In this document: piece by piece, positions 13,025-62,810 of the stretch
How positions within the stretch are numbered: the stretch's first letter is position 1
Layout of the letters: every line of letters starts with the position of its first letter
Assembly (NCBI GenBank): GCA_017459805.1
Contig: JAFUCE010000049.1
Coordinates: 2,464-66,463, forward strand
Origin: Eggerthellaceae bacterium
GTDB lineage: Bacteria; Actinomycetota; Coriobacteriia; Coriobacteriales; Eggerthellaceae
Length of the DNA: 64,000 nucleotides
Direction: 5' to 3'
The notes under the pieces: model-generated
Told to the model about the DNA's origin: nothing
What the model saw: only the letters and a program-made list of their open reading frames with translations
The model's database searches: none
Translations under genes and position numbers: made by a program

Positions 13025-15085
13025 ATGATATGCCCTCATTGCGGACAGGAAACCGCCGACAATTCAATACGTTGCGATAACTGCGGTCAGGCCTTGCATA
13101 CGGGGGTTAATTGGGGCGTACGCAAACCCAGCAATGCCTATCACGCGCAGTATAGTTCCGACACCGAAAAGCTTACCAATTATGTCGCGGTCACACCGGC
13201 GCTTAAAAAAGCAAAGCCTCAGGGTCTCAAAATTGCAGCTGGTATTGCTGCGGCGGTCTTGGTAGCCATTGTTGGTTTCGCTGGTTTTACGGCAGCGCAA
13301 AACACCAGAAACAGCTTGGAAAGCAGCGCCAGTTTCATCGCTCACGAAGAGCGCCTGCATGATGTCATTCTTTCCGTTGACGCCCCCGATCTTGACGACG
13401 CGGGCAGCCTCATCCCTCTACAAATTACTGGTGCCGACTCGGGCAATAACGCCTACGAGGCGCTGGTCTACATCAAGCCCGATGGTACAGGCATTTCTCT
13501 TCCTGCAGGCAACTATGGTGTGCACCCCGTGGCGTCCCCAATTACGGCACATGGCGGACTGTTTACCTACAGTGATGCCAACAAATGGTTCAATATAGAC
13601 CCCGAACTTGAAGAAGGCGCAGTCGTCGATGCGAGCGCCGATGTTCAGCTGGTGTTTGAGCCAGCCGACCCTGCTGCCATCACCGAAGACGCCATTGCTG
13701 CTGCCAAAAAATACGCCACTGAAGGCGGTGGCAAAACCGCCGAAGAAGTGGATGGGCTTCTTGCGGGAATTCAAGACGCCATTGCTGCAGCTAAGCGCGG
13801 CGGCCCCTTCTCGAATGTGCAGACCTACCGCGGGCGGACCTACGCAGGCGACATACGCACCAACACAGGCTATATACCGGTATCGGGCGTTCCTGACATC
13901 TACCCAATTATTACCCGTACTGACTGTTTCCTGTTTACGGGCAATATGCTCTATTACGCCGACAATTCCCCCAACAACACGGGCAGCAGTATCGCCCTTC
14001 ACAGCCGCAATATGTCTACGGGACAAGAAAGCGTTATTGCTACCGACCTTTCAAGCCAGACCAGGCCGCAGTATACCGATGGTCGCATTATCTATACGGC
14101 CACCACCTGGGGAAGTGCAATCACGGTTATCGATACTGGTTCGGGCGAATCGTGGTCTCTGAGCGAAAGACTTCCTGGTGGGTTTAGCAAACTTGTAGGG
14201 GCACGCGATGGTGCAGCTTATGTGGCAACAGCGGATGACAGCATGCCGCAAATCTGTGTCGCACCCCTCGGTGAAGGCGAGCAAAACATCGTGAGCTTTG
14301 GCGAAGAGCCAGGCACGGTGTATGGCATCTTTGACGACACGGTGCTCGTTACCGTTTCAGGCTGGGACCAGAGTAAAGTTGTTGGCTATTCGCTTACTGG
14401 TGAATACCTGTGGCACCAAGATGTTGAAGGTAACACACAGCTCAGCAATACGAACTATACCTACAACGAAGGTATCCTCTGTGCGGTGAGCAGCGGCGGA
14501 AAAGCTATTGTCCGCGTTGACATGAAGGATGGCAGCAACCGCGTCTTCGACAGCAACGTAGCCTATCTTTTCAGCGTCATGTATCCGCGCGGAAACAGCA
14601 TCTACTTTGCGGGGAGCGACCGCTACGCAAACTACGATGACCAAGGCACAGCCATGGCAACCTATACGACCTACGAAATCAATGCCGAAAGCGGTGAAAT
14701 TGCGGACCTGGGTTCCTACGAAGCACCCCAAGATGAAGACCTTGCTGCGCAGCAGAACAATATGTATTGGAACAACTCGAACTACTGGGGCTACACGGGC
14801 ACTGGCACCGACACCACGAACACCTGGGGCTATACGGGCGACGGAACAGCTGGCACGGGCACCGACGGCACCGCAAACACCTGGGGCTACACGGGTACTG
14901 ACACTACAAATACCTGGGGTTACACCGGCACCGACACCACGAACACCTGGGGCTACACTGGCACTGACGGCACGGCGGGTGGATACGGCACCAACCCCTA
15001 TGCAGGTGACTGGGACGCCAATGGAGGCTATGTAGGTGGTGGCATGGGTGGCTATGACGCCACGGGCAACTACGTCAGCCAGTAG
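13025..15085 (+). CDS. zinc-ribbon membrane protein with large extracellular domain and C-terminal WGYTGTD repeats
   Basis: N-terminal CPHCGQ...CDNCGQ zinc ribbon, one TM helix (IAAGIAAAVLVAIVGFAGF) and a ~450-aa domain of unrecognised family. The Gly/Thr/Tyr-rich tail carries five copies of NTWGYTGTD. Confidence 0.75.
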   Translation: MICPHCGQETADNSIRCDNCGQALHTGVNWGVRKPSNAYHAQYSSDTEKLTNYVAVTPALKKAKPQGLKIAAGIAAAVLVAIVGFAGFTAAQNTRNSLESSASFIAHEERLHDVILSVDAPDLDDAGSLIPLQITGADSGNNAYEALVYIKPDGTGISLPAGNYGVHPVASPITAHGGLFTYSDANKWFNIDPELEEGAVVDASADVQLVFEPADPAAITEDAIAAAKKYATEGGGKTAEEVDGLLAGIQDAIAAAKRGGPFSNVQTYRGRTYAGDIRTNTGYIPVSGVPDIYPIITRTDCFLFTGNMLYYADNSPNNTGSSIALHSRNMSTGQESVIATDLSSQTRPQYTDGRIIYTATTWGSAITVIDTGSGESWSLSERLPGGFSKLVGARDGAAYVATADDSMPQICVAPLGEGEQNIVSFGEEPGTVYGIFDDTVLVTVSGWDQSKVVGYSLTGEYLWHQDVEGNTQLSNTNYTYNEGILCAVSSGGKAIVRVDMKDGSNRVFDSNVAYLFSVMYPRGNSIYFAGSDRYANYDDQGTAMATYTTYEINAESGEIADLGSYEAPQDEDLAAQQNNMYWNNSNYWGYTGTGTDTTNTWGYTGDGTAGTGTDGTANTWGYTGTDTTNTWGYTGTDTTNTWGYTGTDGTAGGYGTNPYAGDWDANGGYVGGGMGGYDATGNYVSQ
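14786..14970 (+). repeat. in-frame imperfect tandem repeat encoding (T)NTWGYTG(T/D)G/D units
   Basis: TGGGGCTACACGGG-type cores recur five to six times between 14786 and 14970 at variable 33-48 nt spacing. Confidence 0.8.
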
Positions 15086-27019: not shown

Positions 27020-30000
27020 ATGTTTCAAAAGCGCAGCAACAAGGAATCACGCAAACATATCCTGGCCCTTATATGTACCCTGTCCTTCGCTCTTCTTGCA
27101 GGGCTTTTAGGAGTTTCGCCCGAAATGGCCAGGGCCGAAGTTCCGCTTAACTACGGCAACCCGTTTGAAAACGGAGATTTTGTTCAAAAGGGCGCCCAAT
27201 ACACAGGGGGCTATACGGTTGCCGGTGTCCAATACTCTGCAACTGGTTCATGGATATTGCCAAAAACGGGCGAACCCTTTGAATACCCCGCAGACCTTAC
27301 GGCAGCAGGACAAAATGGCCACCCCACCTATGGGCAATGGGGCGGCGGTGACTTCTTTTTCTGGAACTTTGAGCTTTCGGAAAATACGAGAAACATCAAG
27401 TTGTCGGAAGTGGTACTGGAAGAACCCTACGGAAACGGTAATAAAGGCGTGCGGGCATATTGCACCCAGCACGACAACAGTGACGTTGTCGACATACCGC
27501 GCCTCGGTGGTTTGAATCTATATCCCCAGGCTTCCTATTGGGAAGGAAACATCTTCCATGGCGTTTTCTACATCCTTATGCGCAATACGGCAGGCATGGG
27601 TGTGGCAGACCAATATGGCTGGGACCAGGCAACCGCCATCAAGCAACTGGTCTATGCCGACTGGATTGTTTTGGATGGAAAGGCCAAGGTCGTCAAAACG
27701 TCCGCCAACGAAGGCATCAGCAAAAACAATGCCTGCTATTCCCTGGAAGGCGCAGAATTCGGGGTTTTTGCAAGCGAGGACGATGCTAACAATAATCGTA
27801 ATCGCATAGGAGAAAAACTGATAACCAATACTGCGGGCGTCAGCAACGAAATCGAACTTGAACAGGGCGACTATTGGATGGCAGAACTAAAAGCACCCCA
27901 GGGTTTTGCACCTGAAGCACCTAAGAAGTTTCATGTCGAAGCAGAAAGAACAACCGAGGTTCAATTTGCCGACAAACCCCTTCATAATCCCATCGACATC
28001 GTGCTCAACAAGATTGATGCAGGTACAGGAAACGGCATGGCGCATGGATCAGCTTCGCTATCTGGGGCAGAGTTTAGCGTCAAGTATTTTGACGGCACAT
28101 ATAACGCGAATAATCTTCCTGAACGAGCCACACGCAGCTGGGTTCTGAAAACAGATAGAGAAGGTAAGATCGCGCTCGACACCAGCCACAAGGTTTCGGG
28201 CGACGCCTTCTACCTTAATTCGGCTGGCAAAGCTGTTTTTCCTCTTGGCACGGTAACAATTCAGGAAACCAAAGCTCCCAAGGGCTACCTTCTCAACAAC
28301 AAAGTCTATCTCAGCGTCATAAGCGGCAATGGTGCCACCACGGATACCGTGCAAACTTTTAACGCCCCAACGGTACCCGAAACCATCATTTCAGGAGGGC
28401 TTGCCGTAAAAAAGCTTGATGCACAAACGGAAAGCATACAGGGTGATGCTCGCTTTAAGGGAGCCGAATTCACCATTAAACTTTCAAGCGCTGAAAACGG
28501 TTTCATCGAGATTGACAAACAGCAATACAAACCTGGTGATGTCGTAAAAGTGCTCACGACGGATGAAAATGGCGAAGCCCAAACAGGAGCGCATGATTTG
28601 CCCTACGCTCAATACACCGTTACCGAAACTAAGGCACCTGAAGGCTACCTTCTCAACACAAGTTGGAAATACACTTTCACGGTTACCGAAGACGGCAAGA
28701 TCTACAATGCGGACTTTAAGGAAAAGACTCCTGACCAGGTGATAAGAGGCGGCGTTGTCGTCGGTAAGGTCGACCGTGAAAACGGCAGCTACACGCCCCA
28801 AGGCGCAGCGACGCTTGAAGGAGCCGAATTTGAAATAAGCAATGAATCGAAAAATGCGGTACGCGTAAACGGTAAGGACTATGAACCGGGAAGCACCGTT
28901 ATGACCCTGGTAGTTTCCAAGCAAGACAGCAAGGTCTTAGCTTCGAGCGGCGAAGGAGTTCTTCCCTACGGCACCTACCGTATTCGCGAAACCAAGACGT
29001 CAGACGCTGGTTATCTGTACGACAGCATTTCGAAGGCCTGGACACGCCAATTTAGTATCCGTGAGCAGGGTGACTTCTTCGATTTCACGCAGGAATATAG
29101 CGAGTACGTAACGAACGAATATCTTAACGCGGGCGCACAAAGCGATAAATACGCCTCTGCCGAGCCGCAGCTTGTTATACGGGCGAACTTAAGCTTTGTG
29201 AAGACGCAGGAAGGGAACAACCGCGCGCTTGGCAACATTCCCTTCAAGATTACTTCTCTTACCACGGGTGAGTGGCATATTGCTACGACCGACCCCAACG
29301 GTGAATACAGCACCGACTTTGTCCCGCATTCACAAAACACCAACGCCAACGATGCTGCCTACGATGCTGAAACGCAAAAAATCGATGTTGAAAAACTATC
29401 GGTCGAAAATGGTATATGGTTTCACGGCAGTGCAGATATTCAAACCTTGATTATCGACGACAAGCGCGGGGCGCTCCCCTACGACAGCTACCTCATAGAA
29501 GAACTTTCCTGCAAAGCTAATGAAGGCTTGGGGCTCGTACGTGACATCTTGGTCGTGTATCGCGACCAAAGCATTGCGCCCCGCACCTATATCGATACCG
29601 AAGGTCCGCGCATTGCCACCTTGCTGACCTCGGAGGGCAAACGGGCGGCTACGGCTTCAAAAAAGACCCCCTTTACCGACATGGTCTACTACAGCAACTT
29701 AGAGATAGGAGCCAGCTACACGATGAAGGCTGAACTTCATGCCTGGGATGCCGAAGGCAAGGATTTAGGGGTAGTAGCAACTGCTGAACAGGAGTTCAAG
29801 GCCACGGGAACAGGAAGCGTGGACGTGGTTTTTGACGAGATTGATACGAGCAATCTTGTTGGTGGCAAGTTGGTCTGTTTCGAATATGCTTTTGACGCGC
29901 AGGGTAGCGCGGTGGCACAACATGAGGACCCAGACGATGAAGCACAAACTCTTGTTGTCGAACCTGAACCTGAACCTGAACCTGAACCGGAACCGGAACC

Positions 30001-30724
30001 GGAACCGGGGCCAGAACCAGAGCCAGAACCAGAGCCGGAGCCGGAACCAGAGCCCGAGCCTACGCCTGAGCCAGAACCAGAGCCAGAGCCAGAGCCAATA
30101 CAGCCATCCATTGGCACACTAGCAAGCGACAAAGAAACGGGCACGCATGACACGCATGCAAACAGTGAGGATGTCCTTGTCGACCGCATTCATTTTGAAA
30201 ATTTCACGGAAGGTGAAACCTATGCGATTTACGGGCGTGCCATTGATTCCGAAACGGGAGAAGACCTCGGCATTGCATCGAGCATGAGCTTTGTAGCGCC
30301 CGCGAGCACAGGAAGCGTGGATCTTGAATTTAGCGCCGACACGAGCGGGCTCGCAGGTAAGACAATCGTCTTTTTTGAAGAAGCCTATGAAGGAACAGTG
30401 TCGACTCCAGTAATTAATGCCAGCAGCTCATCGACCCAAGAAGCAAGCAGCAGTACCCCACAAAATAAAGCTGAGCCCATTGCTGTCCACAAAGATATCA
30501 AGAGCAAAGACCAGAGTATTCATGTGCTTGAGCCCGATACCCCAAACCCGGCCCCCAGCAAAACGCCGACTCCTGTCAGTAGAGTCATGGCAAAAACAGG
30601 TGACTTTCTTTCCGCACACCCCTTCATTGCGCTTGCCCTTGCTGCAGCTGCGACTAGCCTTGTTGCTACAAAGATGCGCAACCTGCGCCGCTGGCAAGCA
30701 CGCCAACGCAGCCGCAAATTGTAG
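27020..30724 (+). CDS. cell-wall-anchored surface adhesin: signal peptide, possible thioester-type N-domain, multiple SpaA/Cna-B-like prealbumin-fold repeats, two VaFE-like repeats, (EP)n linker, LAxTG-like sorting signal
   Basis: RBS GAGGAGG and signal peptide ...[11 protein letters not shown]. The GAEF...Y.(I/V).E.KAP.GY module recurs at least four times. VCFEYAF and VFFEEAY motifs are present, along with a ~46-aa EP-rich linker. The C-terminus is VMAKTGD, a hydrophobic helix and a [17 protein letters not shown] tail. Confidence 0.9.
29960..30096 (+). repeat. GAACC(N)-type hexanucleotide microsatellite encoding an (EP)n linker
   Basis: gaacctgaacctgaacctgaaccggaaccggaaccggaaccg...gagccagagccagagcca, with synonymous variation between units. 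Confidence 0.9.
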
Positions 30725-48020: not shown

Positions 48021-49469
48021 CTAGAGCCCCGCCTTTTCGACTGCTTTTTCAGCCTGCTCTTTCGTGAAACCTTCCTCGAGGAGCATCTCGATCAAGCGAT
48101 CGCGGGAAAGGGGCATGTACTCCAGCCAATCTGCCGCAGCTGCATCGGCCATTTCGTCCCAGTTGGCTCCGCACTTTTCAACAGCGTATGCTGCCTGTTC
48201 TTTCGTGAAGCCTTCCCACTCAAGCTGTTCCTGTAAACCAGTAGGCCCGAAAGGCATGCTCTCAAGATACGACTTGGCCATACTAAGCGCTTGCTCGTTC
48301 CAGTCTGCGCCGCAATTATCGGCCGCATAGACCGCATCTTCGTGGCTAAACTTTTCATACTCGAGTTGGCGAATCACTCCTTCGTAAGAAAAGCCGTTAT
48401 ATGCAAGGTACTCTTTTGCTCTGTTCAGGGCATTTTCGCGGCTCGTTTCAGTTGAAGCCGCACCGCCTGCTGCATCCTTCGCTTCGCCGTCCTTGCTATC
48501 CTGGGTGGCTGCATTATCCTGGGTGGCTGCATTATCCTGGGTGGCCGCATCCTTGGCGTTGTTGTCAGCGCCGGCAGAAGCACCAGTGCCGCTGCCCGTT
48601 GTGGCGCCTGTTTCCCTCTCCATTTCTTCCTTGAGTTCATCGAGCTGTTCCTGGAGCCTGCCCGTTTCATCTTCGGCGGCCAGTTCTTCTAGGGCACCGA
48701 TGAATTCGTCAGGGTTTTCTGCCACGGTGTTAACCGCCATAAGCGAAGTGACTACTAAAACGATGCCAACAAGAATCGCAAGAATAGACAGGACGAGGCC
48801 AATAATACTGGTAATCTTGCCCGCTTTAGCACGACCGTTTTCAGGGTCGGCCGCAAGTACGGGACGCGATTTCACGATACCAACAATAGAGAGAATCAAA
48901 CCCACCAGGCCTGCAAAGATGATGGAGCAAATACCCAAAACCAAAGGAGTGGTACCTGGGTTAGACCCGTTTGCATATTGCGCCGTACCAGGGGCAACGC
49001 CATAGGGCTGGTTAGGGTCGTAGGGTTGCTGCGCATACTGCTGGTTGGGGTCGTAAGGTTGCTGCGCATATTGCTGGTTGGGGTCGTAAGACTGCTGCGC
49101 ATATTGCTGGTTTGGGTCGTAAGACTGCTGCGCGTAAGTTTGATTAGTGTCGTAAAATGTTTGCTGAACTGGTTGCGCATAAGCCTGCTGGTTCGGATCA
49201 GGCGTTGGTTGCGCATAGTCCTGCGTGCCTGCATCGTACGGTGCCTCCTGCGGCATTTGTACTGTCGCGTCCATGGAAGCAGGTGTTTCGCTTACTGCCG
49301 GTTTTGCAGGCGCTGAAAATGGCTGCACCTGTTCGTTGGCGTCACTGAAGGGCTGCGAAGCGTCGGCCTGGGCATTTCCCGAAAGCGCCGACTGCAAGTT
49401 GCCCAAAACACTACCTGCAGAAGTTTCCTCAGATTCGGGGTTTTCTGGTGTTAACTTATCTTCTGGCAT
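48021..49469 (-). CDS. membrane protein with Q/Y/P-rich cytoplasmic repeats and three extracellular Ltp-family repeats
   Basis: N-terminal (QQYAQQ[SP]YDPN)x4, two TM helices, QDNAAT x3, then three Ltp-like modules (ALNRAKEYLAYNGFSYEGVIRQLEYEKFSHEDAVYAADNCGADW; ...EGFTKEQAAYAVEKCGANW; ...EGFTKEQAEKAVEKAG). Confidence 0.75.
   Translation of the reverse strand: MPEDKLTPENPESEETSAGSVLGNLQSALSGNAQADASQPFSDANEQVQPFSAPAKPAVSETPASMDATVQMPQEAPYDAGTQDYAQPTPDPNQQAYAQPVQQTFYDTNQTYAQQSYDPNQQYAQQSYDPNQQYAQQPYDPNQQYAQQPYDPNQPYGVAPGTAQYANGSNPGTTPLVLGICSIIFAGLVGLILSIVGIVKSRPVLAADPENGRAKAGKITSIIGLVLSILAILVGIVLVVTSLMAVNTVAENPDEFIGALEELAAEDETGRLQEQLDELKEEMERETGATTGSGTGASAGADNNAKDAATQDNAATQDNAATQDSKDGEAKDAAGGAASTETSRENALNRAKEYLAYNGFSYEGVIRQLEYEKFSHEDAVYAADNCGADWNEQALSMAKSYLESMPFGPTGLQEQLEWEGFTKEQAAYAVEKCGANWDEMADAAAADWLEYMPLSRDRLIEMLLEEGFTKEQAEKAVEKAGL
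49007..49138 (-). repeat. 33-nt in-frame tandem repeat x4 (encodes QQYAQQ[S/P]YDPN)
   Basis: gctggtt(a/g)gggtcgta(g/a)g(g/a)(t/c)tgctgcgcata(c/t)t units at 49007, 49040, 49073 and 49106. Confidence 0.9.
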
Positions 49470-49541: not shown

Positions 49542-51695
49542 TTATTCCTTGGCACCCGACTGGATAAGATCCCACATCGGCGAATCCTTTTTGGCGGCTT
49601 CCAGCTCGGCGTCGGTAAGGGTATAGTCCCACCAACCGCGCGCCGAAGCCTGGCTGCCGTCAAGGCGATAGCTCACGCCCAGGTTCACCTTGCCGTTCCC
49701 GTCGATGAAGAAAGTACTCGTAACATCTTTGGCGTTCGAGCCCTTGCCCTGGATGGCACCAATCAAACTGTCGCGTCCCGCAACGCTTTCTGCGGCGCCG
49801 CCGTCATACTTGCTAAGGTTGTCAATGAAGTGCCCGGCGATTTCGTCGTTAATTTTAAGCACATCGTTAAGCTCGTATACGTCGCCCGTTTTGAGGTTCA
49901 CGTTAAGGGTGTAAAGCGCAATAAAGCCGCCCGTCCACGACCCAATGGAATGCTCATCGGAAAACGCAATGCTCACAAAGTCATTGTTGTTAAAGGTAAT
50001 GGCGTAATCGACGTCGGTTTCAAGAATGGCGTCGGCATCCTTTGGCACACCAAAGCCGCCCGATGCATAGGTTTCAAGCAGGCTGCGCGCTTCAGACGTG
50101 GGATTGGTGTAGGTCGTGTCCACAAAGCGCATGGCCGTTTCTTCGATGGCCTTATTGATTTTGTCGAGATCTTTAATATCGCCCTTGAGCTGGGGATATT
50201 CAACTTCAAAGTCGTAGGCGATGGTCTTGTTATAAAAGTCCATCTTTTCGGTGCCTTCGCGGCTATAATCCGCTTCACTGACAGTGTAGGCAACCGACTT
50301 GTCCCACGCGCTGTGGAGTTCGCCGTCGTCGGCATCTATGCCGCCGCCCGTAACGTGTTGGGCACCGTGGTATTCATCCCAGGCGGGGTCGTCCCAATCG
50401 ATTTCACCGTCGTCATCCCAATTAAAAGCGAAGGGGGCGCTGTTGGAATCGCCAGAGCCCGATTCGGGGCCGGAGCCAGAGTCTGGGCCTGAACCCGACC
50501 CACCAGAGCCACCTGGATTATGGTCGCTATAGGGGCCATCGTTGCCCTGCCCGTTTTCACCATCGTTACCCTGCCCATCTTCAAACACATTAAGCGATTC
50601 AATGAGGGGTGAGTCGTAATCCGTTGCATTGGTTGCCAAAATGCGCCCGATAACAAGGGACGCAATAATGGCAAGCACACCAACAATAAGAACGAGCACA
50701 ATGCCGACCGTAGCCTTGTTTGACTTCGTGTATTCAGGCGTTTGCGGCTGGGGCTGCACGGTGAAATCCTGCGCGGGCACATAGCCGGCAGGCTGCTGGA
50801 TTTGTGGTGTGTATGCCTGCGAATAACCTGCGGGCTGCGCCTGAACTTGGGGCTGCACCTGAGCTTGAGCTTGAACATGTGGCTGTGCTTGGGCTTGAAC
50901 CTGAGCCGCAGGAGCTTGCGCTTGCACGGGCTGTTGGACCTGGCCCTGCACCTGGCCTTGGGGCTGGACCCCTGCGCGATACGTTTGCTGATAAGGCTGC
51001 TGCGCATAAGGCTGGGTGCCAGCTGCTTGCGCGTAGGGCTGCTGCGCGTAGGGAGTCTGCATAGGCGCCACGGGCTGCGCTTGTTGCGCAAAAGCTGGCG
51101 CTGGCTGCGTAGGCTGTACCGGTTGGAAGCCCTGCCAATATCCACTTTGTGCAGGAGCCGTTGGAGCCTGCGCTGGGTAGTGCGAAGTCTGCTCGTAAAC
51201 CGCTTGCGTCATGGGCTGCGCGCCAGGTTGTGTCACGGCTTGACCCGCAGGCTGCACGCCAGACTGACCTGCAATCTGACTGGGAGCTTGCCCTGCTGCC
51301 TGCGCCACTGGCTGACCCATCGGCTGCTCAGCTGTCTGCCCCACTGGCTGCACTGCAGCTTGCGCCACGGGCTGGGCCACAGACTGTGCCGCAGGCTGCC
51401 CCGCAGCGTCAACAGGTTCTCCGTCAAGCCAGGCACCCATCAGTTCCTTCAGTTGCTCCTGCGCAACGGCCACCTTACTAACCGAAGCACGTGCGTTCTC
51501 CAAGTCGCTTTTTGCTTTCAGTGATTCGGCTGCAACCTGAGGAAACTCGCTTTCGGCCACATCAGCCACAGCACCGTCGACCACCTCGGTCGCCTCGACA
51601 CTCGCGTCCTCAACAATTTTGGCTTCAGGCGCATCCGTGTTTCCAGCCGCCTCTTCTGACAGTTCTTCTTGCTTCTTCTCTTTGTCTTCAGCCAT
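49542..51695 (-). CDS. membrane protein with long Q/P/A/V-rich cytoplasmic region and extracellular DUF4163/DUF3298-like (RsiV/PdaC-like) domain
   Basis: The low-complexity N-terminal half reads AQPVAQAAVQPVGQ..., QVQGQVQQPVQAQAPAAQVQAQAQ... One TM helix (VGIVLVLIVGVLAIIASLVIG) and a Gly/Ser/Asp/Asn linker follow. The C-terminus FEVEYPQLKGDIKDLDKINKAIEE... and ...YTLNVNLKTGDVYELNDVL matches the DUF4163+DUF3298 pattern. Confidence 0.65.
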   Translation of the reverse strand: MAEDKEKKQEELSEEAAGNTDAPEAKIVEDASVEATEVVDGAVADVAESEFPQVAAESLKAKSDLENARASVSKVAVAQEQLKELMGAWLDGEPVDAAGQPAAQSVAQPVAQAAVQPVGQTAEQPMGQPVAQAAGQAPSQIAGQSGVQPAGQAVTQPGAQPMTQAVYEQTSHYPAQAPTAPAQSGYWQGFQPVQPTQPAPAFAQQAQPVAPMQTPYAQQPYAQAAGTQPYAQQPYQQTYRAGVQPQGQVQGQVQQPVQAQAPAAQVQAQAQPHVQAQAQVQPQVQAQPAGYSQAYTPQIQQPAGYVPAQDFTVQPQPQTPEYTKSNKATVGIVLVLIVGVLAIIASLVIGRILATNATDYDSPLIESLNVFEDGQGNDGENGQGNDGPYSDHNPGGSGGSGSGPDSGSGPESGSGDSNSAPFAFNWDDDGEIDWDDPAWDEYHGAQHVTGGGIDADDGELHSAWDKSVAYTVSEADYSREGTEKMDFYNKTIAYDFEVEYPQLKGDIKDLDKINKAIEETAMRFVDTTYTNPTSEARSLLETYASGGFGVPKDADAILETDVDYAITFNNNDFVSIAFSDEHSIGSWTGGFIALYTLNVNLKTGDVYELNDVLKINDEIAGHFIDNLSKYDGGAAESVAGRDSLIGAIQGKGSNAKDVTSTFFIDGNGKVNLGVSYRLDGSQASARGWWDYTLTDAELEAAKKDSPMWDLIQSGAKE

Positions 51696-51830
51696 GGTCC
51701 CAGGCCTTTCTCGCTCTAAAAATAGACCCCGTTATTCTAGCATTCAGTAACAAACACCTTTTGGCTGCTACACATCTGTTGCCATTTGGAAATGTAGGCG
51801 GTGCCCACCCATTCCAGCTTCAACCCACAT

Positions 51831-52068
51831 CCAAGCGCGACGCCCAACCACCAGCGCACCCACCACACCCAAGCGCCACACCCAACCACCAGCGCACCCA
51901 CCACACCCAAGCGCCCCTGCCTCCGGCCGCCCGCACCACCCAAGCGCCACGCCCAACCACCAACGCACCCACCAGACCCAAGCGCCACACCCAACCACCA
52001 GCGCACCCGCCACACCCAAGCACCCCTGCCTCCGCCCGCATGCGCTTGCCTCCGCCCACCCGCACCAC
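51831..52068. repeat. noncoding C-rich (T-free) 38-bp tandem repeat with a ~109-bp higher-order unit
   Basis: Unit A is ccaagcgc(c/g)ac(a/g)cccaaccacca(g/a)cgcaccc(a/g)cca(c/g)ac, at 51831-51868, 51869-51906, 51940-51977 and 51978-52015. Each A-A pair is followed by a related B unit (ccaagc(g)cccctgcctccg(g)cc(gc)... at 51907-51939 and 52016-52068). It lies in the 519-bp divergent intergenic region. Confidence 0.9.
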
Positions 52069-52214
52069 CGCTTCGCTCCTCTTAGGTTTTTGATGGCGTT
52101 TTTCACCGACTCACTACACCTTTCGCAAGCGTTTCGTGTATAGTGAATTCATCAGTAAAGTCCGAAGGTCGGCGCGCTGCAAGGGGGCGCGCAGCGAGAG
52201 TAGGAGAACCCCAC

Positions 52215-53390
52215 ATGAATGAATTGGAACTGAAGTACGGTTGTAACCCCAACCAGAAACCATCGCGCATTTACATGGAAAATGGCGCGGATTTGCCCAT
52301 CGAAGTTTTGAACGGTAAGCCAGGCTATATTAACTTCATGGACGCCTTTAATTCTTGGCAGCTGGTGCGCGAGGCAGCGGCCGCCACAGGGCAACCAGCA
52401 GCGGCGTCGTTTAAGCACGTTTCGCCTGCAGGTGCCGCCATCGGCCTGCCCCTTTCCGACATCGAAAAGCATATTTACTTCGTGGAAGGCATGGAGCTTT
52501 CGCCTATCGCTAACGCCTACGCCCGCGCCCGCGGGGCCGACCGCCTGTGCAGCTATGGCGACTGGATTGCCCTTTCGCACGAATGCGACGAAGCAACCGC
52601 GCGCATTATCGCGCTGGAAGTTTCCGACGGCGTAATCGCGCCCAGCTACAGCGACGCAGCGCTCGAAATCCTAAAGAGCAAGCGCAAGGGTGGCTACAAC
52701 GTCATTAAGATGGACACCGAATACGTGCCCGCGCCTGTCGAAACGCGCCTCATCTACGGCATTGGTTTTGAACAGGGCCGCAACGAACTGCCCATCGACG
52801 CCAGCTGCCTGGAAAACATCGTCACGGACAACAAGGACCTTCCCGACGCCGCCAAGGACGACTTGGTGCTCGCGCTGATTACCTTGAAGTACACGCAGTC
52901 GAATTCGGTGTGCTACGTAAAGAACGGCCAGGCCATCGGCATTGGCGCTGGTCAGCAAAGCCGCATCCACTGCACGCGTCTGGCAGGCAACAAAGCCGAC
53001 AACTGGCTGCTGCGCCAGCACCCGAAGGTACTGGAACTTCCCTTCGTTGAAGGCATTGCACGCCCCATCCGCGACAACGCGATTGACGTCTACATTTCCG
53101 AAGAACATGACGACGTGCTGCGCGATGGCGCCTGGCAGGAAATCTTTACCGTTCAGCCCGATGTGCTCACGCGCGAAGAAAAGGCCGAATGGTGCGCTTC
53201 GCAAAGTGGCGTAAGCATTGGTTCGGACGCCTTCTTCCCCTTCGGCGACAACATCGAACGCGCCCGCAAGAGTGGTGTGCAGTACGTGGCTGAACCGGGT
53301 GGATCAATTCGCGACGACAACGTGATTGAAACGGCCAACAAGTACAACATGGTCATGGCCTTTACAGGAAGCCGCCTGTTCCATCACTAG
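52215..53390 (+). CDS. AICAR transformylase-domain protein (PurH-like, lacking the IMP cyclohydrolase/MGS domain)
   Basis: Track ORF 52143-53390. Start moved to ATG 52215, preceded by AGGAGA. It begins at the LKYGCNPNQ motif, which corresponds to LRYGENPHQ at the start of the AICARFT domain of bifunctional PurH. 391 aa. Confidence 0.85.
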   Translation: MNELELKYGCNPNQKPSRIYMENGADLPIEVLNGKPGYINFMDAFNSWQLVREAAAATGQPAAASFKHVSPAGAAIGLPLSDIEKHIYFVEGMELSPIANAYARARGADRLCSYGDWIALSHECDEATARIIALEVSDGVIAPSYSDAALEILKSKRKGGYNVIKMDTEYVPAPVETRLIYGIGFEQGRNELPIDASCLENIVTDNKDLPDAAKDDLVLALITLKYTQSNSVCYVKNGQAIGIGAGQQSRIHCTRLAGNKADNWLLRQHPKVLELPFVEGIARPIRDNAIDVYISEEHDDVLRDGAWQEIFTVQPDVLTREEKAEWCASQSGVSIGSDAFFPFGDNIERARKSGVQYVAEPGGSIRDDNVIETANKYNMVMAFTGSRLFHH

Positions 53391-53412: not shown

Positions 53413-53447
53413 ACTAGTAGGCTCCGCGTGGGCCTACTAGTTTTTTC
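53413..53447 (+). terminator. rho-independent terminator after the PurH-like gene
   Basis: ACTAGTAGGC-N9-GCCTACTAGT is followed by TTTTTTC. Confidence 0.85.
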
Positions 53448-53525: not shown

Positions 53526-53978
53526 CTATTTATGGTAGGGTTCCTTGCGCTGGATTTTGAAGGCGCGGTAAAGCTGTTCGAGAAGCACCACGCGTGCCAA
53601 ATTATGCGGCAAAGTAATGGGTCCAAAGCTCAGTCGTTCGTTGGCTCGCTGCTTTATTTCGTAAGTGACGCCTTCGCTTCCCCCGATAACAAAAACCAGG
53701 TGAGAAACACCACCCACGGTCCAGTTTTCCAATTTTTCAGCAAGTTGTTCGCTTGACGTTTCCTTGCCCTGAATGTCGAGGAGCACAACTTGGGTACTGG
53801 GTGACAAAGCGTCCAAGTGGGCGAAGAGCGCCGGAGCTTCATTGCAGGGGCAACTGTCGGGAATCTCTTGCACGTTTACCTTCGCGTAGGCGCTCAGGCG
53901 TTTTAGGTATTCCGCGCAGGCATCGCGCCAGAAGGCTTCCTTCAGCTTGCCTACCGCCAGTATGTCGACTTTCAGCAC
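53526..53978 (-). CDS. rlmH: 23S rRNA (pseudouridine1915-N3)-methyltransferase
   Basis: GTG start preceded by AAGGAG. 150 aa SPOUT pattern ...VFVIGGSEGV...ERLSFGPITLPHNLARVVLLEQLYRAFKIQRKEPYHK. Confidence 0.9.
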   Translation of the reverse strand: MLKVDILAVGKLKEAFWRDACAEYLKRLSAYAKVNVQEIPDSCPCNEAPALFAHLDALSPSTQVVLLDIQGKETSSEQLAEKLENWTVGGVSHLVFVIGGSEGVTYEIKQRANERLSFGPITLPHNLARVVLLEQLYRAFKIQRKEPYHK

Positions 53979-54053
53979 CCTGCTTCTCCTTCATGCGGGC
54001 CGTACATATTGCAATACTCGCAAGCCCCCAGGTAGCGGGTCGAAACCAAGCGT

Positions 54054-55340
54054 CTACTTGATTACGCGAATAAGGGTGGGGTCTGGATCCACGAGCACGT
54101 GGTCAAGCTTAGCGATGTCGTCAAGCGTGGCACGCAGCGCACCTTCGCGAGCTGAGTGCGTAACATAGACAAGCTCGGCCGTGTCTGCTTCGTTTTGTCC
54201 GCGCTGGATAACCGAATGAACGCTCACACCATGTTCGGCGAAAACCGCGCTCATGGCTGCCAAAATGCCGGGGCGCTCTTCCACCTTGAAGCGGATGTAG
54301 GCGCGCGTGACAAGATCGTCAGTGGACACGAAGGGAAGTGTGTCGGCGTAGGTGTTTTCCTGCACAGGAGCCGTGCCCGCCTGCACGTGCCGCGCAATTT
54401 CGAGGACGTCACCCATGACCGCACTCGCGGTAGCATGCGAACCAGCGCCCTGGCCAAAGAACATGGTCTGGCCCACGAAGTCGCCTTCCACATAGATGGC
54501 GTTGTAAACACCATTAACCATTGCCAGCGGATGATCCAGCGGCACCATGGCGGGATGCACGCGCACGTCAATGCCTTCTTCGGTGCGGCTCGCGCTGGCC
54601 AGCAACTTCACGCAATAACCCATGTCAGCCGCGGCGGCCAGGTCGGCCGTGGTAATGCTGCGGATACCTTCGGCGTGAACCTGGTCTTGCGTCACGCGCG
54701 TGTTAAAGGCGATGGAGGCCAGAATCGCAATCTTGGCAGCGGCGTCAAGGCCGTCCACGTCGGCTGTAGGATCGGCTTCGGCGTAACCCTTTTCCTGCGC
54801 GTCAGCCAACACGTCTTCGTAGCTCATGCCTTCAGCGGCCATGCGCGTAAGCATGTAGTTAGTCGTTCCGTTGACGATGCCTAAGATGCTCGTGATTTCG
54901 TTGGCAGTAAGGGAATGCTTCAGCGGGCCAATGATAGGAATGCCGCCGCCAACGGACGCCTCGAGTGCAAGCCAGCATCCATGCTCGGCCGCCAACGCTT
55001 CGATTTCTTCACCGAAGGCAGCCAGCAGGGCCTTGTTGGCGGTAACCACGTGCTTGCCGTTTTCGAGAGCTTCGCACACCACTTCTTTGGCAGTGGTGGT
55101 GCCACCAATGAGTTCGATGACGACATCAATTTCAGGGTCGGTAGTGATGTTGTGCCAGTCGTGCGTGTACAGTTCAGGCACGCCATGCGCTTCGGCGCCT
55201 TCCGATGTACGGGCGCATACGCGCACCAGTTCCACGTCGATGCCATAGCGCGTTTTGAAATCGGCAGTATGCGCGTTGAACACGTCAATGCAGCCGCCGC
55301 CCACGGTACCCGTTCCAACTAAACCAACTTTTACTGTCAT
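54054..55340 (-). CDS. hom: homoserine dehydrogenase (with C-terminal ACT domain)
   Basis: Start taken at ATG 55338-55340, preceded by GGGAG. MTVKVGLVGTGTVGGG..., ...NGTTNYMLT..., ACT-like C-terminus. Confidence 0.92.
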   Translation of the reverse strand: MTVKVGLVGTGTVGGGCIDVFNAHTADFKTRYGIDVELVRVCARTSEGAEAHGVPELYTHDWHNITTDPEIDVVIELIGGTTTAKEVVCEALENGKHVVTANKALLAAFGEEIEALAAEHGCWLALEASVGGGIPIIGPLKHSLTANEITSILGIVNGTTNYMLTRMAAEGMSYEDVLADAQEKGYAEADPTADVDGLDAAAKIAILASIAFNTRVTQDQVHAEGIRSITTADLAAAADMGYCVKLLASASRTEEGIDVRVHPAMVPLDHPLAMVNGVYNAIYVEGDFVGQTMFFGQGAGSHATASAVMGDVLEIARHVQAGTAPVQENTYADTLPFVSTDDLVTRAYIRFKVEERPGILAAMSAVFAEHGVSVHSVIQRGQNEADTAELVYVTHSAREGALRATLDDIAKLDHVLVDPDPTLIRVIK

Positions 55341-55444
55341 CACTTACTCCCATCTATAGATTCGTGCTATATATTACACAATTGCAGGCGAAATAGGGTT
55401 GAGCACCCCTCGTCCAGGTGCTGAACGTCCGTCAAGGACTTGGT

Positions 55445-57015: not shown

Positions 57016-58167
57016 CTACCACGTGCTCGCGATCAAATAGGCTTTGGCATCGTGGGCTTCGCCGTTTCGCCAGCGGATTTTTACAAAGGTAGGGAAGCAG
57101 TACAGTCGCATGCTTTCACCCTGGAACGAAACGCACCTCGAAAACGCAGTTGCGGGAAGTAAGCGCCAGCGGTCGTCGGCAAGGCCCCAGGCTTCCAGCT
57201 GTTCCATAAGCTGCCCCGCGGCTCCGCTCGTCTTAAAGATTGCTTCTGGCTTATTATCGCCCGGCAAAAGGAAGCGTGCACTCAGCCCAAGGGTCGGCTC
57301 CGCCGTGCCATCTGGTGCAATATTAAATTGGAATTCAATACGGAACGGCAGCCGCGCAAAGCTTTGGCACCACGGAATAATAGTGGTGCCCGCGGTGCTT
57401 ATACCAAGCTGATTCAAATGCGCTTCAAGGAGCGCCGCATCTTGCGCGTAGGCCTGCTGCATTTCTTCAGTGGGGATGCATTCGACACGCAAGCCCATAT
57501 CCGCCCGAGACGGGAACACGCCCGCGTAACACGCAAACCAATCCTGTGGCTTACGTTCCATGAATGCGCGGTAGGCACCCACGGCGTCTGGCCTGCCCGC
57601 AGCTTGGAAAAAGCCGCCCATGGTGTCGTCGTTTCTGTGGTACAGCAAAAGCTGAACGGCAGGGTTGTCCACAAGACCCTTACTTATATCGTGGCTCAGG
57701 GCAAGCTGGCGCCCATCTGTTGCTTGCGTGGCAAACCATTCGAACACTTCGGGATAGAAGATCTGCGGCGCAGGCTCGACAGCTTCCGCCGTCCCCGTGC
57801 GCCGCGGCGCAGACTCGGCAGCTTCCGCCGTCCCCGTGCGCCGCGGGGCGGGCTCGGCAGCCCCCGATGTCCCAGCGCATTGCGGCGCAGGCTCGGCAGC
57901 CCCCGATGTCCCAGCGCATTGCGGTGCGCGCCCAGCAGCAGAAGCAGCCCCGTCCATAAGGCTTTCCCGACTCGTAAGCACATGCAAATCAAACCAGGGC
58001 TCACCTAAAAGAGGCAGCTCAAACCACACTTCGGGAAATGACGAACCGACGAAGCTGCGTTCAAATACGTCATCCGCACGGGATGCGCAATCGCCGAATA
58101 AAGCAGCTTCGCGCCCGTCCAGGGCAGCTTGCGCGTAAATCAAGTTATAAATGATGCCGTAATTCAA
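57016..58167 (-). CDS. hypothetical protein, paralog A of an unrecognised family (see 61623-62810)
   Basis: Shares N-terminal (FPEVWFELPLLGEPWFDLHVL vs FPSVYLEFPLLGDPFLDVTLL) and C-terminal (ADDRWRLL...FPTFVKIRWRNG...AKAY vs ADERWHLS...FPKWVKARWRAG...AKMY) blocks with paralog B. The start is an apparent TTG and is uncertain. Confidence 0.7.
   Translation of the reverse strand: MNYGIIYNLIYAQAALDGREAALFGDCASRADDVFERSFVGSSFPEVWFELPLLGEPWFDLHVLTSRESLMDGAASAAGRAPQCAGTSGAAEPAPQCAGTSGAAEPAPRRTGTAEAAESAPRRTGTAEAVEPAPQIFYPEVFEWFATQATDGRQLALSHDISKGLVDNPAVQLLLYHRNDDTMGGFFQAAGRPDAVGAYRAFMERKPQDWFACYAGVFPSRADMGLRVECIPTEEMQQAYAQDAALLEAHLNQLGISTAGTTIIPWCQSFARLPFRIEFQFNIAPDGTAEPTLGLSARFLLPGDNKPEAIFKTSGAAGQLMEQLEAWGLADDRWRLLPATAFSRCVSFQGESMRLYCFPTFVKIRWRNGEAHDAKAYLIASTW
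57767..57922 (-). repeat. 39-nt in-frame tandem repeats (2+2 copies) inside paralog A
   Basis: The units encode APQCAGTSGAAEP x2 and APRRTGTAEA(A/V)E(S/P) x2. Unit boundaries are at 57767, 57806, 57845 and 57884. Confidence 0.85.
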
Positions 58168-61622: not shown

Positions 61623-62810
61623 ATGAAGGCCCCTTCGCATGAAGATGCGTTTCAAGCTTTACTACTGCAAGCAGCTGGCGAGGGCCGCGGCGAAGTCCTG
61701 TTTGCAGATAGTCTCGAGCGCGTTCAGCAACAGGTTCCACCCTTCCTGGTGGGCGACAAATTTCCTTCCGTGTACCTGGAGTTTCCGCTTTTGGGCGACC
61801 CGTTTCTGGACGTAACTTTACTTTATAGCGAGCTTGCACCTGGTGTGCGTATTGAACACCCTGCTGCAGCGGGATCAGAAGGTATGATGGACTGGTTTGC
61901 GGGCCTGGATAATCACAAAAACTCGGGCGCAAACCCCGGCCCAGCCCCTAACACCAATTCGGGCGCAAACCCCGGCTCATCCCCAAATACCAACTCAGCC
62001 CCTAACCCCAGCCAGGGCAGCAAGAACAACGTAAGCACGAACAACAAAAATGGAGCGAGCGCTTCCGCACTAAGCGGCAACAGAAAAGATCTTGATATTT
62101 GCTGCGGCTTCGAACTGGATACCAAAAACCCTGAACTACCTGCAGCCGCCGTACATTTTCAGCCACGCGCTCACACCGAACTGGTGCGCCCCTTCTGCGA
62201 AGCCGTAGGCGAGCCAGACCGCGCCAAGCTGTATTTAGATATGGCTGCGCGCATGCCAGAAGGCTGGCCGCTTTCGTTTTTCGGCATGTTTCGCGGGCGC
62301 CATGGTTCACCCCTGCGCGTGTGCGGCTACATGGGTGCCGACGAAAAAGCTTTGTGCGCACAGGACCCACAGCGTCTGATGGGCGTGTTCGATAGCCTTG
62401 GCTTTACTGCCTACGATGACACTATGGTGCAAGAGACGTGTACACTCCTAGGCCTTGCTGGCAATGCGGCTGATTTCCAGTTTGACGTATACCCCGATGG
62501 CAGCTTGGGCGACACTTTTGCCCTCGATAATTCATTTGATATTGAAAGACCTGAAAACGTACAAGATAGCTTTGCGAACGGGCCAGCATCACGGGTCATG
62601 CAATTCTTCCAGGAACGCGGCGTGGCCGATGAGCGTTGGCATCTTTCGTCCGACATGACCTTTGCGCGTGCCATTCCTGTGAGCAACGAAGATGGCTCAA
62701 AGAGCAAATATGCTTTCGTTGTATTCCCCAAGTGGGTAAAAGCCCGGTGGCGTGCAGGCGTGCTGCAGCCAGCAAAAATGTACACCTACGTCCACGCCTG
62801 CTTCCTTTAG
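61623..62810 (+). CDS. hypothetical protein, paralog B of the family at 57016-58167
   Basis: RBS GAGAGAGG. It shares conserved blocks with paralog A (see that entry). It has an Asn/Pro/Gly/Ser-rich insert at the equivalent position. Confidence 0.75.
   Translation: MKAPSHEDAFQALLLQAAGEGRGEVLFADSLERVQQQVPPFLVGDKFPSVYLEFPLLGDPFLDVTLLYSELAPGVRIEHPAAAGSEGMMDWFAGLDNHKNSGANPGPAPNTNSGANPGSSPNTNSAPNPSQGSKNNVSTNNKNGASASALSGNRKDLDICCGFELDTKNPELPAAAVHFQPRAHTELVRPFCEAVGEPDRAKLYLDMAARMPEGWPLSFFGMFRGRHGSPLRVCGYMGADEKALCAQDPQRLMGVFDSLGFTAYDDTMVQETCTLLGLAGNAADFQFDVYPDGSLGDTFALDNSFDIERPENVQDSFANGPASRVMQFFQERGVADERWHLSSDMTFARAIPVSNEDGSKSKYAFVVFPKWVKARWRAGVLQPAKMYTYVHACFL
61920..62009 (+). repeat. 36-nt in-frame tandem repeat (2.5 copies) inside paralog B
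   Basis: aa(c/t)tcgggcgcaaaccccggc... units at 61920, 61956 and a partial one at 61992. They encode NSGANPG(P/S)(A/S)PNT. Confidence 0.85.

Follow-up and report, generated by a model that had tools for sequence, protein, structure and literature searches.

A probable young minisatellite between the divergent promoters of purH and an envelope-protein gene in an uncultured gut bacterium

We identified a noncoding tandem repeat array of about 240 bp in the intergenic region shared by purH and a divergently oriented gene for a 717-aa envelope protein. It occupies positions 51831-52068 of the window, by which we mean the whole 64-kb stretch of DNA that was analysed. The array is probably a young, species-specific and unstable minisatellite, or variable-number tandem repeat (VNTR), that acts as a passively lengthening spacer between two divergent promoters. 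It displays the features by which bacterial minisatellites are recognized, namely head-to-tail units in the range of about 10-100 bp, copy number that differs by whole units between close strains (as seen in short-read assemblies), and freedom from coding constraint.

The gene to the left of the array (49542-51695, minus strand) encodes a 717-aa protein whose N-terminus is rich in Q and P, whose translation shows one hydrophobic (transmembrane-like) segment, and whose C-terminal domain weakly resembles PdaC. To the right, purH (52215-53390, plus strand) encodes a short PurH, an AICAR formyltransferase (PRK07106, E = 4.8e-209). The two divergent starts between which the array had originally been placed, 51695 and 52215, are both correct. 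Among named relatives, those closest to this PurH (~76-77% identity) belong to Oscillospiraceae and Pseudoflavonifractor. Same-species contigs carry the sample label XIEF21, which we take to be that of a ruminant gastrointestinal metagenome dataset.

Anatomy and composition of the array

When the sequence is cut at the recurring motif CCAAGC, the array resolves into units in the order A1-A2-B-A3-A4-B', with lengths of 38/38/33/38/38/53 bp. Units A1 (51831-51868), A2 (51869-51906), A3 (51940-51977) and A4 (51978-52015) contain no T on the plus strand, and A2 is identical to the consensus. Unit B on the same strand (51907-51939, CCAAGCGCCCCTGCCTCCGGCCGCCCGCACCAC) has two T residues, and unit B' (52016-52068) consists of B plus an internal duplication of TGCCTCCGCCC. 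The array is preceded by a degenerate lead-in (51801-51830, plus strand, GGTGCCCACCCATTCCAGCTTCAACCCACAT) that resembles a decayed unit and falls within DNA missing from the sister species L028, which is described below. Tandem Repeats Finder reports a period of 38 bp (5.3 copies, 78% matches) and a period of 109 bp (1.9 copies, 94% matches), and a weaker 19-bp sub-period is also present in its output and in the comparison of units. The four A units differ from one another at only five positions. At unit position 12, A1 and A3 carry G and A2 and A4 carry A, as the (A-A-B)x2 order would predict. Each of the four units matches the consensus with at most three mismatches, and no match was found in 100 shuffled sequences. 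The unit dissection and Tandem Repeats Finder confirm the original prediction of four 38-bp T-free A units, arranged as A-A-B/A-A-B' with a super-repeat of ~109 bp.

The composition of positions 51831-52068 is strongly skewed (C 57.6%, A 23.9%, G 15.1% and T 3.4%). The array contains the two longest T-free runs of the 64-kb window (104 and 87 nt), and the next longest (77 nt) lies inside a coding repeat. No stop codon occurs in any of the six frames and the minus strand carries 19 GGG runs, in agreement with the earlier description of six open frames and of GGG runs on that strand. Approximately three T-free stretches of 38 nt are expected by chance per 64 kb. The T-free character of the whole array is therefore mostly inherited from a short T-free seed that was amplified, and it does not constitute independent evidence for selection.

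Two observations leave room for a functional reading. The 109-bp halves of the array differ at 7 of 103 positions (~6%), whereas strains differ by less than 1%, so the array predates the radiation of the strains and has persisted well beyond their divergence. In addition, none of the few differences among units or strains creates a T. C-to-T changes are usually the commonest, and differences without T would fit, as a weak indication, either constraint on the T-free state or mutational bias.

The A units (for example CACCCACCACACCCAAG; 51831-52015, plus strand) are reminiscent of the irregular C1-3A repeats at budding-yeast telomeres. In several assemblies the contig that bears the array has bacterial genes on either side of it, so the likeness is compositional and does not reflect contamination. 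A1 (51848-51855), A2 (51886-51893) and A4 (51995-52002) each contain one copy of the Escherichia coli Chi octamer, GCTGGTGG, on the minus strand. The octamers sit on the G-rich strand, which the GC skew suggests is the leading strand. The remainder of the 64 kb contains two plus-strand copies and one minus-strand copy of the octamer, which is the chance level, and we rejected a cluster of Chi sites as a probable coincidence. Iterons of a replication origin were also rejected, since no initiator gene is found nearby and the GC skew, which is negative over nearly all of the 64-kb window, does not switch sign.

History of the locus in sister species and strains

In four sister lineages (L009-L013, L016 and L017), whose PurH proteins are 91-93% identical to that of the window, all genes lie on one strand in the order DAP decarboxylase, homoserine dehydrogenase, rlmH, purH, a gene for a protein of 612-620 aa and, further along, a P-type ATPase. 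Relative to these collinear lineages, purH alone is inverted in the window. The purH segment, whose left end is at 52149-52214, varying with the sister locus compared, and whose right end is at ~53394, aligns in the forward orientation to L009, L010, L016 and L017, and both flanks, 49569-50837 and 53526-55358, align in the reverse orientation to the same loci. Several samples yielded contigs (9-96 kb) that run across both junctions, and the inversion is therefore not a misassembly. A search for inverted repeats as possible mediators of the inversion gave no convincing candidates. In more distant relatives purH is located in a pur operon or elsewhere. Between the convergent genes purH and rlmH of the window, a perfect hairpin with a 10-bp stem (ACTAGTAGGC...GCCTACTAGT) is followed by T6 at 53413-53441. 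This feature is terminator-like, the DNA there is missing from the collinear sister species, and it lies outside the region (51400-52500) that was scanned for promoters and terminators as described below.

The purH inversion is common to the window and L028 (PurH 92% identical, on a 469-kb contig). The divergent intergenic region measures 256 bp in L028, compared with 519 bp in the window. The two sequences match from the start of the 717-aa gene through a TGcTAGAAT box to ...TTGGAAAyGTAGG, and again from TCCTCTTrrGTTTTTG through a TATAGT box and the purH leader to the start codon. Between these matches the window carries a species-specific block (51800-52076) where L028 has 13 bp (CTCCTTCGTGCCG) instead, a difference of ~265 bp that reflects either an insertion or an expansion in situ. 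Tandem Repeats Finder detected no comparable repeat in the L028 intergenic region. The array cannot be a scar of the purH inversion, because L028 has the same junction without it. Since L028 is inverted and lacks the array, the array would be a later event in a region that was already divergent, and we infer a gain in this species rather than a precise loss in L028.

The surroundings of purH have changed in other ways as well. L028 and L029 have the purH inversion in common; in both, rlmH is also inverted and a gene for a PIN-domain toxin is located between purH and rlmH. In L028 the toxin gene is followed by an ORF of 102 aa that likely encodes the antitoxin, and the upstream context of L029 is different again. 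This clade has a hot spot of rearrangement around purH.

Seven more same-species contigs (L001-L006 and L015) extend to the array, with flanks that are 99.2-99.99% identical to the window. Repeat copy number, singled out at the outset as a feature to compare across strains, does differ, and three alleles are found among these near-identical strains. The arrangement of the window, AABAAB', is present in L001, L003, L005 and L015. L002 and L004 carry ABAAB' (38 bp shorter, with one A of the A1/A2 pair gone), and L006 carries AAB' (109 bp shorter, with A2-B-A3 gone). The deletions coincide exactly with unit boundaries. All of these alleles come from short-read metagenome assemblies, in which repeats can collapse; however, L002 and L004 have the same allele together with the same flank SNPs in two independent assemblies, which argues against random collapse. 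A search for more strains by exact look-up of the rlmH protein added no contig extending to the array.

Two strains have an identical A-to-C change at unit position 4 (CCAAGC to CCACGC) but in different units, B in L005 and A4 in L015, which may be due to repeated mutation, to gene conversion or to an artefact of sequencing. The window also contains in-frame tandem repeats within coding regions, at 49001-49155 (33-bp units), 57763-57924 (39-bp units), 29960-30097, 14869-14968 and 61923-62013. The coding repeat in an Ltp-repeat membrane protein (48021-49469, minus strand) may explain a length difference between strains (482 versus 476 aa, the latter in L002). Instability of repeats seems to be a general property of the genome.

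In the sequences that were scanned, the array occurs at a single locus. No second copy of the 38-mer is present in the 64-kb window, and GTDB genomes, JGI metagenomes and IMG/VR gave only isolated single chance matches of 19-23 nt, with the species itself being absent among the scanned GTDB representatives. Plasmid and phage collections contained no match. The search for further copies of the 38-mer that had been suggested together with the original prediction therefore came back empty in the window and in the GTDB, JGI, viral, plasmid and phage sets. Likewise, the sister loci contain no source DNA for the array. A MAFFT alignment hinted that the array derives from a leftover 3' end of purH, but we rejected this origin because Smith-Waterman alignments to five purH 3' ends scored no better than shuffled sequences. 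No significant inverted repeats and no terminal inverted repeats were found at the array, which consequently lacks the palindromic core of REP/BIME, MITE and MIRU elements.

These results bear on whether the array could be foreign, as a remnant of a mobile element or as imported repetitive DNA, rather than a product of growth in situ. The clean boundary between presence and absence in the comparison with L028 is consistent with an insertion, as is the position near a hot spot of rearrangement that includes the purH inversion and, in L028 and L029, the rlmH inversion and the insertion of a PIN toxin-antitoxin pair. However, the borders show neither terminal inverted repeats nor a target-site duplication, the plasmid, phage, viral, genome and metagenome collections hold no matching DNA, and a nested 19/38/109 structure is the product of stepwise local duplication. 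We therefore consider a foreign origin very unlikely, and the nested periodicity favours growth in situ.

A history of the following kind would account for the minisatellite. In the lineage leading to this species, purH would have been inverted, creating a new divergent intergenic region of ~256 bp, a state that L028 would have kept. Later, and in this species only, a C/A-rich, T-free seed of ~19 bp would have been amplified stepwise (19, then 38, then 109 bp) through slippage during replication or through unequal recombination, adding ~265 bp of extra DNA. The same slippage or recombination is presumably still active and would account for the loss of whole 38-bp units or 109-bp super-units between near-identical strains. 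The resulting array supplies no promoter, constrained ORF or RNA structure, and it lengthens and varies the spacer between promoters that already existed. Any influence on expression would be indirect, for instance through supercoiling coupling or through non-B DNA under divergent transcription.

Coding potential, transcription and flanking promoters

In several assemblies, gene finders call a minus-strand ORF that begins with a GTG at 52068 and has an AGGAG 7 nt ahead of this codon. The array periods of 38 and 109 bp are not multiples of three. Across the three alleles the ORF encodes 82, 97 or 63 aa with unrelated C-termini, and a search of 5.8 billion proteins revealed no relatives beyond the same locus. 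On the basis of this allele-dependent product and the lack of relatives elsewhere we rejected a coding reading, and the noncoding status that was originally assigned to the array is borne out.

A known RNA family was rejected as well. Rfam contains no match to the array at the gathering threshold or at E values up to 10, and neither strand of the array is predicted to fold more stably than shuffled sequences (z = -0.69 and -0.24); the DNA folding by ViennaRNA, as used here, does not model G-quadruplexes (G4). Elsewhere in the window, an AdoCbl-II cobalamin riboswitch is located at 2622-2719 on the minus strand (Rfam RF01689, 40.9 bits, above the gathering score).

The array might instead function as a transcribed element. 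Its plus strand could give a rut-like RNA that loads Rho, or an anti-Shine-Dalgarno sponge acting through the CCUCC of B and B', and its minus strand could give a G/U-rich RNA or a small protein. Rut sites are typically C-rich, G-poor and unstructured stretches of at least 80 nt within a transcript, and the plus strand fits this description in composition and lack of structure (57.6% C, 15.1% G, z = -0.24). Moreover, GCCTCC occurs three times across B and B', and the minus-strand ORF with its AGGAG 7 nt before the GTG is called in several assemblies. However, we found no promoter that would transcribe the plus strand. A scan of 51400-52500 for consensus sigma-70 promoters and terminators detected nothing on either strand, which is a weak test, as the scan also misses two conserved -10 boxes with poor -35 elements. 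A -10 box is impossible inside the array itself, the length and C-terminus of the ORF depend on the allele and the ORF has no homologues, Rfam gives no match, and the array is missing in L028. A role as a transcribed element is, in our judgement, very improbable indeed.

Those two conserved boxes are the best promoter candidates, as judged from their sequence and conservation. The putative extended -10 element of the 717-aa gene, TGcTAGAAT (51734-51742, minus strand, with the -10 box itself at 51734-51739), shows no variation across five lineages or in L028, and it is 91 bp from the array. The putative -10 element of purH, TATAGT (52139-52144, plus strand), is kept in the window, L028, L009, L010, L013 and L017, and is 70 bp from the array. 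The sequence TAnnnT does not occur on either strand of 51831-52068, where the A units lack T on the plus strand and A on the minus strand, so the units are without sigma-A-type -10 boxes.

Downstream of the TATAGT box, the purH leader (52145-52214, plus strand) carries a GC hairpin at ~52168-52197 and the Shine-Dalgarno sequence AGGAG at 52202. The region 52139-52214 has a single mismatch to L028, while the coding DNA of purH is ~86% identical. The GC hairpin and the sequence GAGAGTAGGAG that follows it are kept in five lineages. Neither compensatory changes nor an Rfam match were seen for the leader, which may be an undescribed cis-regulatory element.

The two -10 elements are ~135 bp apart in L028 and 399 bp apart in the window, and by subtraction ~361 and ~290 bp apart in the shorter alleles. 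Because both boxes are outside the array, copy number alters only the distance between two complete putative promoters. L028 has both of these promoters and the leader in the absence of the array, which is thus dispensable for promoter function and cannot be essential. Copy-number-dependent promoter spacing in the manner of classical phase variation, one of the roles first proposed for the array, does not stand up to the position of the -10 boxes, 91 and 70 bp beyond its borders, or to the arrayless L028 with both promoters.

Non-B DNA, protein binding and related repeats

The G4Hunter score of the array has a mean of about -1.16 and a magnitude of 1.2 or more in almost every 25-nt window within 51840-52079, making the array the largest continuous G4Hunter-positive block of the 64-kb window. 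No canonical G3N1-7 motif is found in 51800-52100 on either strand. The minus strand has four G3N1-12 motifs and 57 starts of two-tetrad motifs, and the loops between GGG runs within the A units measure 6, 10 and 13 nt. The G4 potential of the array is moderate, and G4 formation is possible. The longest C run in the array is four. Runs of four or fewer are short for an i-motif at neutral pH, and formation of an i-motif under this condition is doubtful. The original prediction of G4 potential on one strand and i-motif potential on the other is therefore upheld in part: relaxed G3N1-12 motifs and moderate G4Hunter scores are present, whereas the canonical motif is missing and the i-motif is doubtful. 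Because L028 is without the array, a G4 is not needed for either promoter.

A structural role has been considered in which the supercoiling generated by divergent transcription folds the minus strand into a G4 and leaves the plus strand as an i-motif or single strand. Such a structure would absorb supercoils, or block or recruit factors, and its copy number would tune one or both promoters in the manner of a rheostat or insulator. The array is located between divergent promoters, where negative supercoiling would concentrate, its copy number is polymorphic, and the large G4Hunter block with its four G3N1-12 motifs, 57 two-tetrad starts and 19 GGG runs is suggestive. There is also a bacterial precedent for G4 folding in vitro by G-rich tandem repeats (PMC4692102). 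However, the absence of a canonical G3N1-7 motif, the A-unit loops of 6, 10 and 13 nt and the C runs of at most four do not favour such folding, and L028 has the same two putative promoters without any array. The array is moreover known from one locus in one species, hence there is no evolutionary replication. Taken together, this evidence makes a rheostat or insulator unlikely.

The array could also be a series of sites for a sequence-specific DNA-binding protein, whose occupancy would scale with copy number. Copies of the motif CCA(A)GCGC are spaced 19 bp apart, GCGC is present nine times in 238 bp (2.4 expected), and the array is positioned upstream of two promoters. However, there is no dyad symmetry past the GCGC core, and the periods of 19, 38 and 109 bp correspond to non-integral numbers of helical turns. 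The neighbours of the array are purH, rlmH and the membrane-protein gene, with no regulator gene adjacent, and the motif is missing upstream of the same genes in L028 and the collinear sisters and has no other copies in the window. The protein-binding array that was put forward originally is consequently disfavoured by both its symmetry and its spacing, and we regard it as extremely unlikely.

Intergenic tandem repeats that vary between strains have precedents, of which the MIRU-VNTR loci of Mycobacterium tuberculosis are similar to the array in having head-to-tail intergenic units of tens of base pairs and whole-unit differences between strains, presumably through slippage or unequal recombination. 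MIRUs belong to a family that is scattered over dozens of loci in a genome. In contrast, the array was found at one locus only, and it has a T-free strand asymmetry and an A-A-B super-repeat. Tandem repeats in the promoters of the M. tuberculosis genes dop, lpdA and cysG have a 57-bp unit that contains the promoter, such that copy number changes promoter dose (PMC12817950). These repeats resemble the array in having long units (57 versus 38 or 109 bp) upstream of genes and in varying among close strains. However, the units described here cannot hold TAnnnT, and both putative promoters are outside them.

Promoter switches based on simple sequence repeats, such as the TA tract between the divergent hifA and hifB promoters, the 7-bp repeats of hmw and the TAAA repeats of nadA, are likewise intergenic tracts beside genes whose length could alter expression. 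Their units are 1-9 bp long and are located inside or against core promoter or operator elements (PMC12721329), whereas the array has 38-bp units and is 70-91 bp from the -10 boxes, with no overlap of a core promoter. The nearest structural analogues are the GGGNATC repeats of Xanthomonas and Nostoc, which are also G-rich, noncoding tandem repeats with variable unit number and G4 potential. They are heptamers found genome-wide, with four units preferred, are under-represented between divergent ORFs and fold in vitro (PMC4692102). In contrast, we describe a single array with 38-bp units that lies between divergent ORFs and is without a canonical G4 motif, and whose G4 is predicted from its sequence.

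A minisatellite that arose de novo might subsequently have been co-opted as a supercoiling-responsive non-B-DNA element between the promoters that the inversion made divergent, with copy number tuning expression of the envelope protein, purH, or both. We consider such co-option quite unlikely, and any hypothetical regulatory or non-B-DNA role of the array cannot be essential. If co-option is true, the array would be a natural and datable regulatory novelty that came about through repeat expansion in a gut anaerobe. Modulation of both promoters by the array would similarly be a rare, datable regulatory innovation, although nothing that we found requires it. The locus also counsels caution, in that a striking composition (T-free, open in six frames and G4-prone) can arise simply by amplification of a short seed.

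The minisatellite and its relatives form a natural series of three states: a collinear arrangement in four sister lineages, an inverted purH with a short spacer in L028, and a spacer with an expanding minisatellite in three alleles. This series shows when and where a bacterial minisatellite arose, as well as its continuing instability. The alleles are useful for strain typing of an uncultured, Oscillospiraceae-like bacterium of the ruminant gut.
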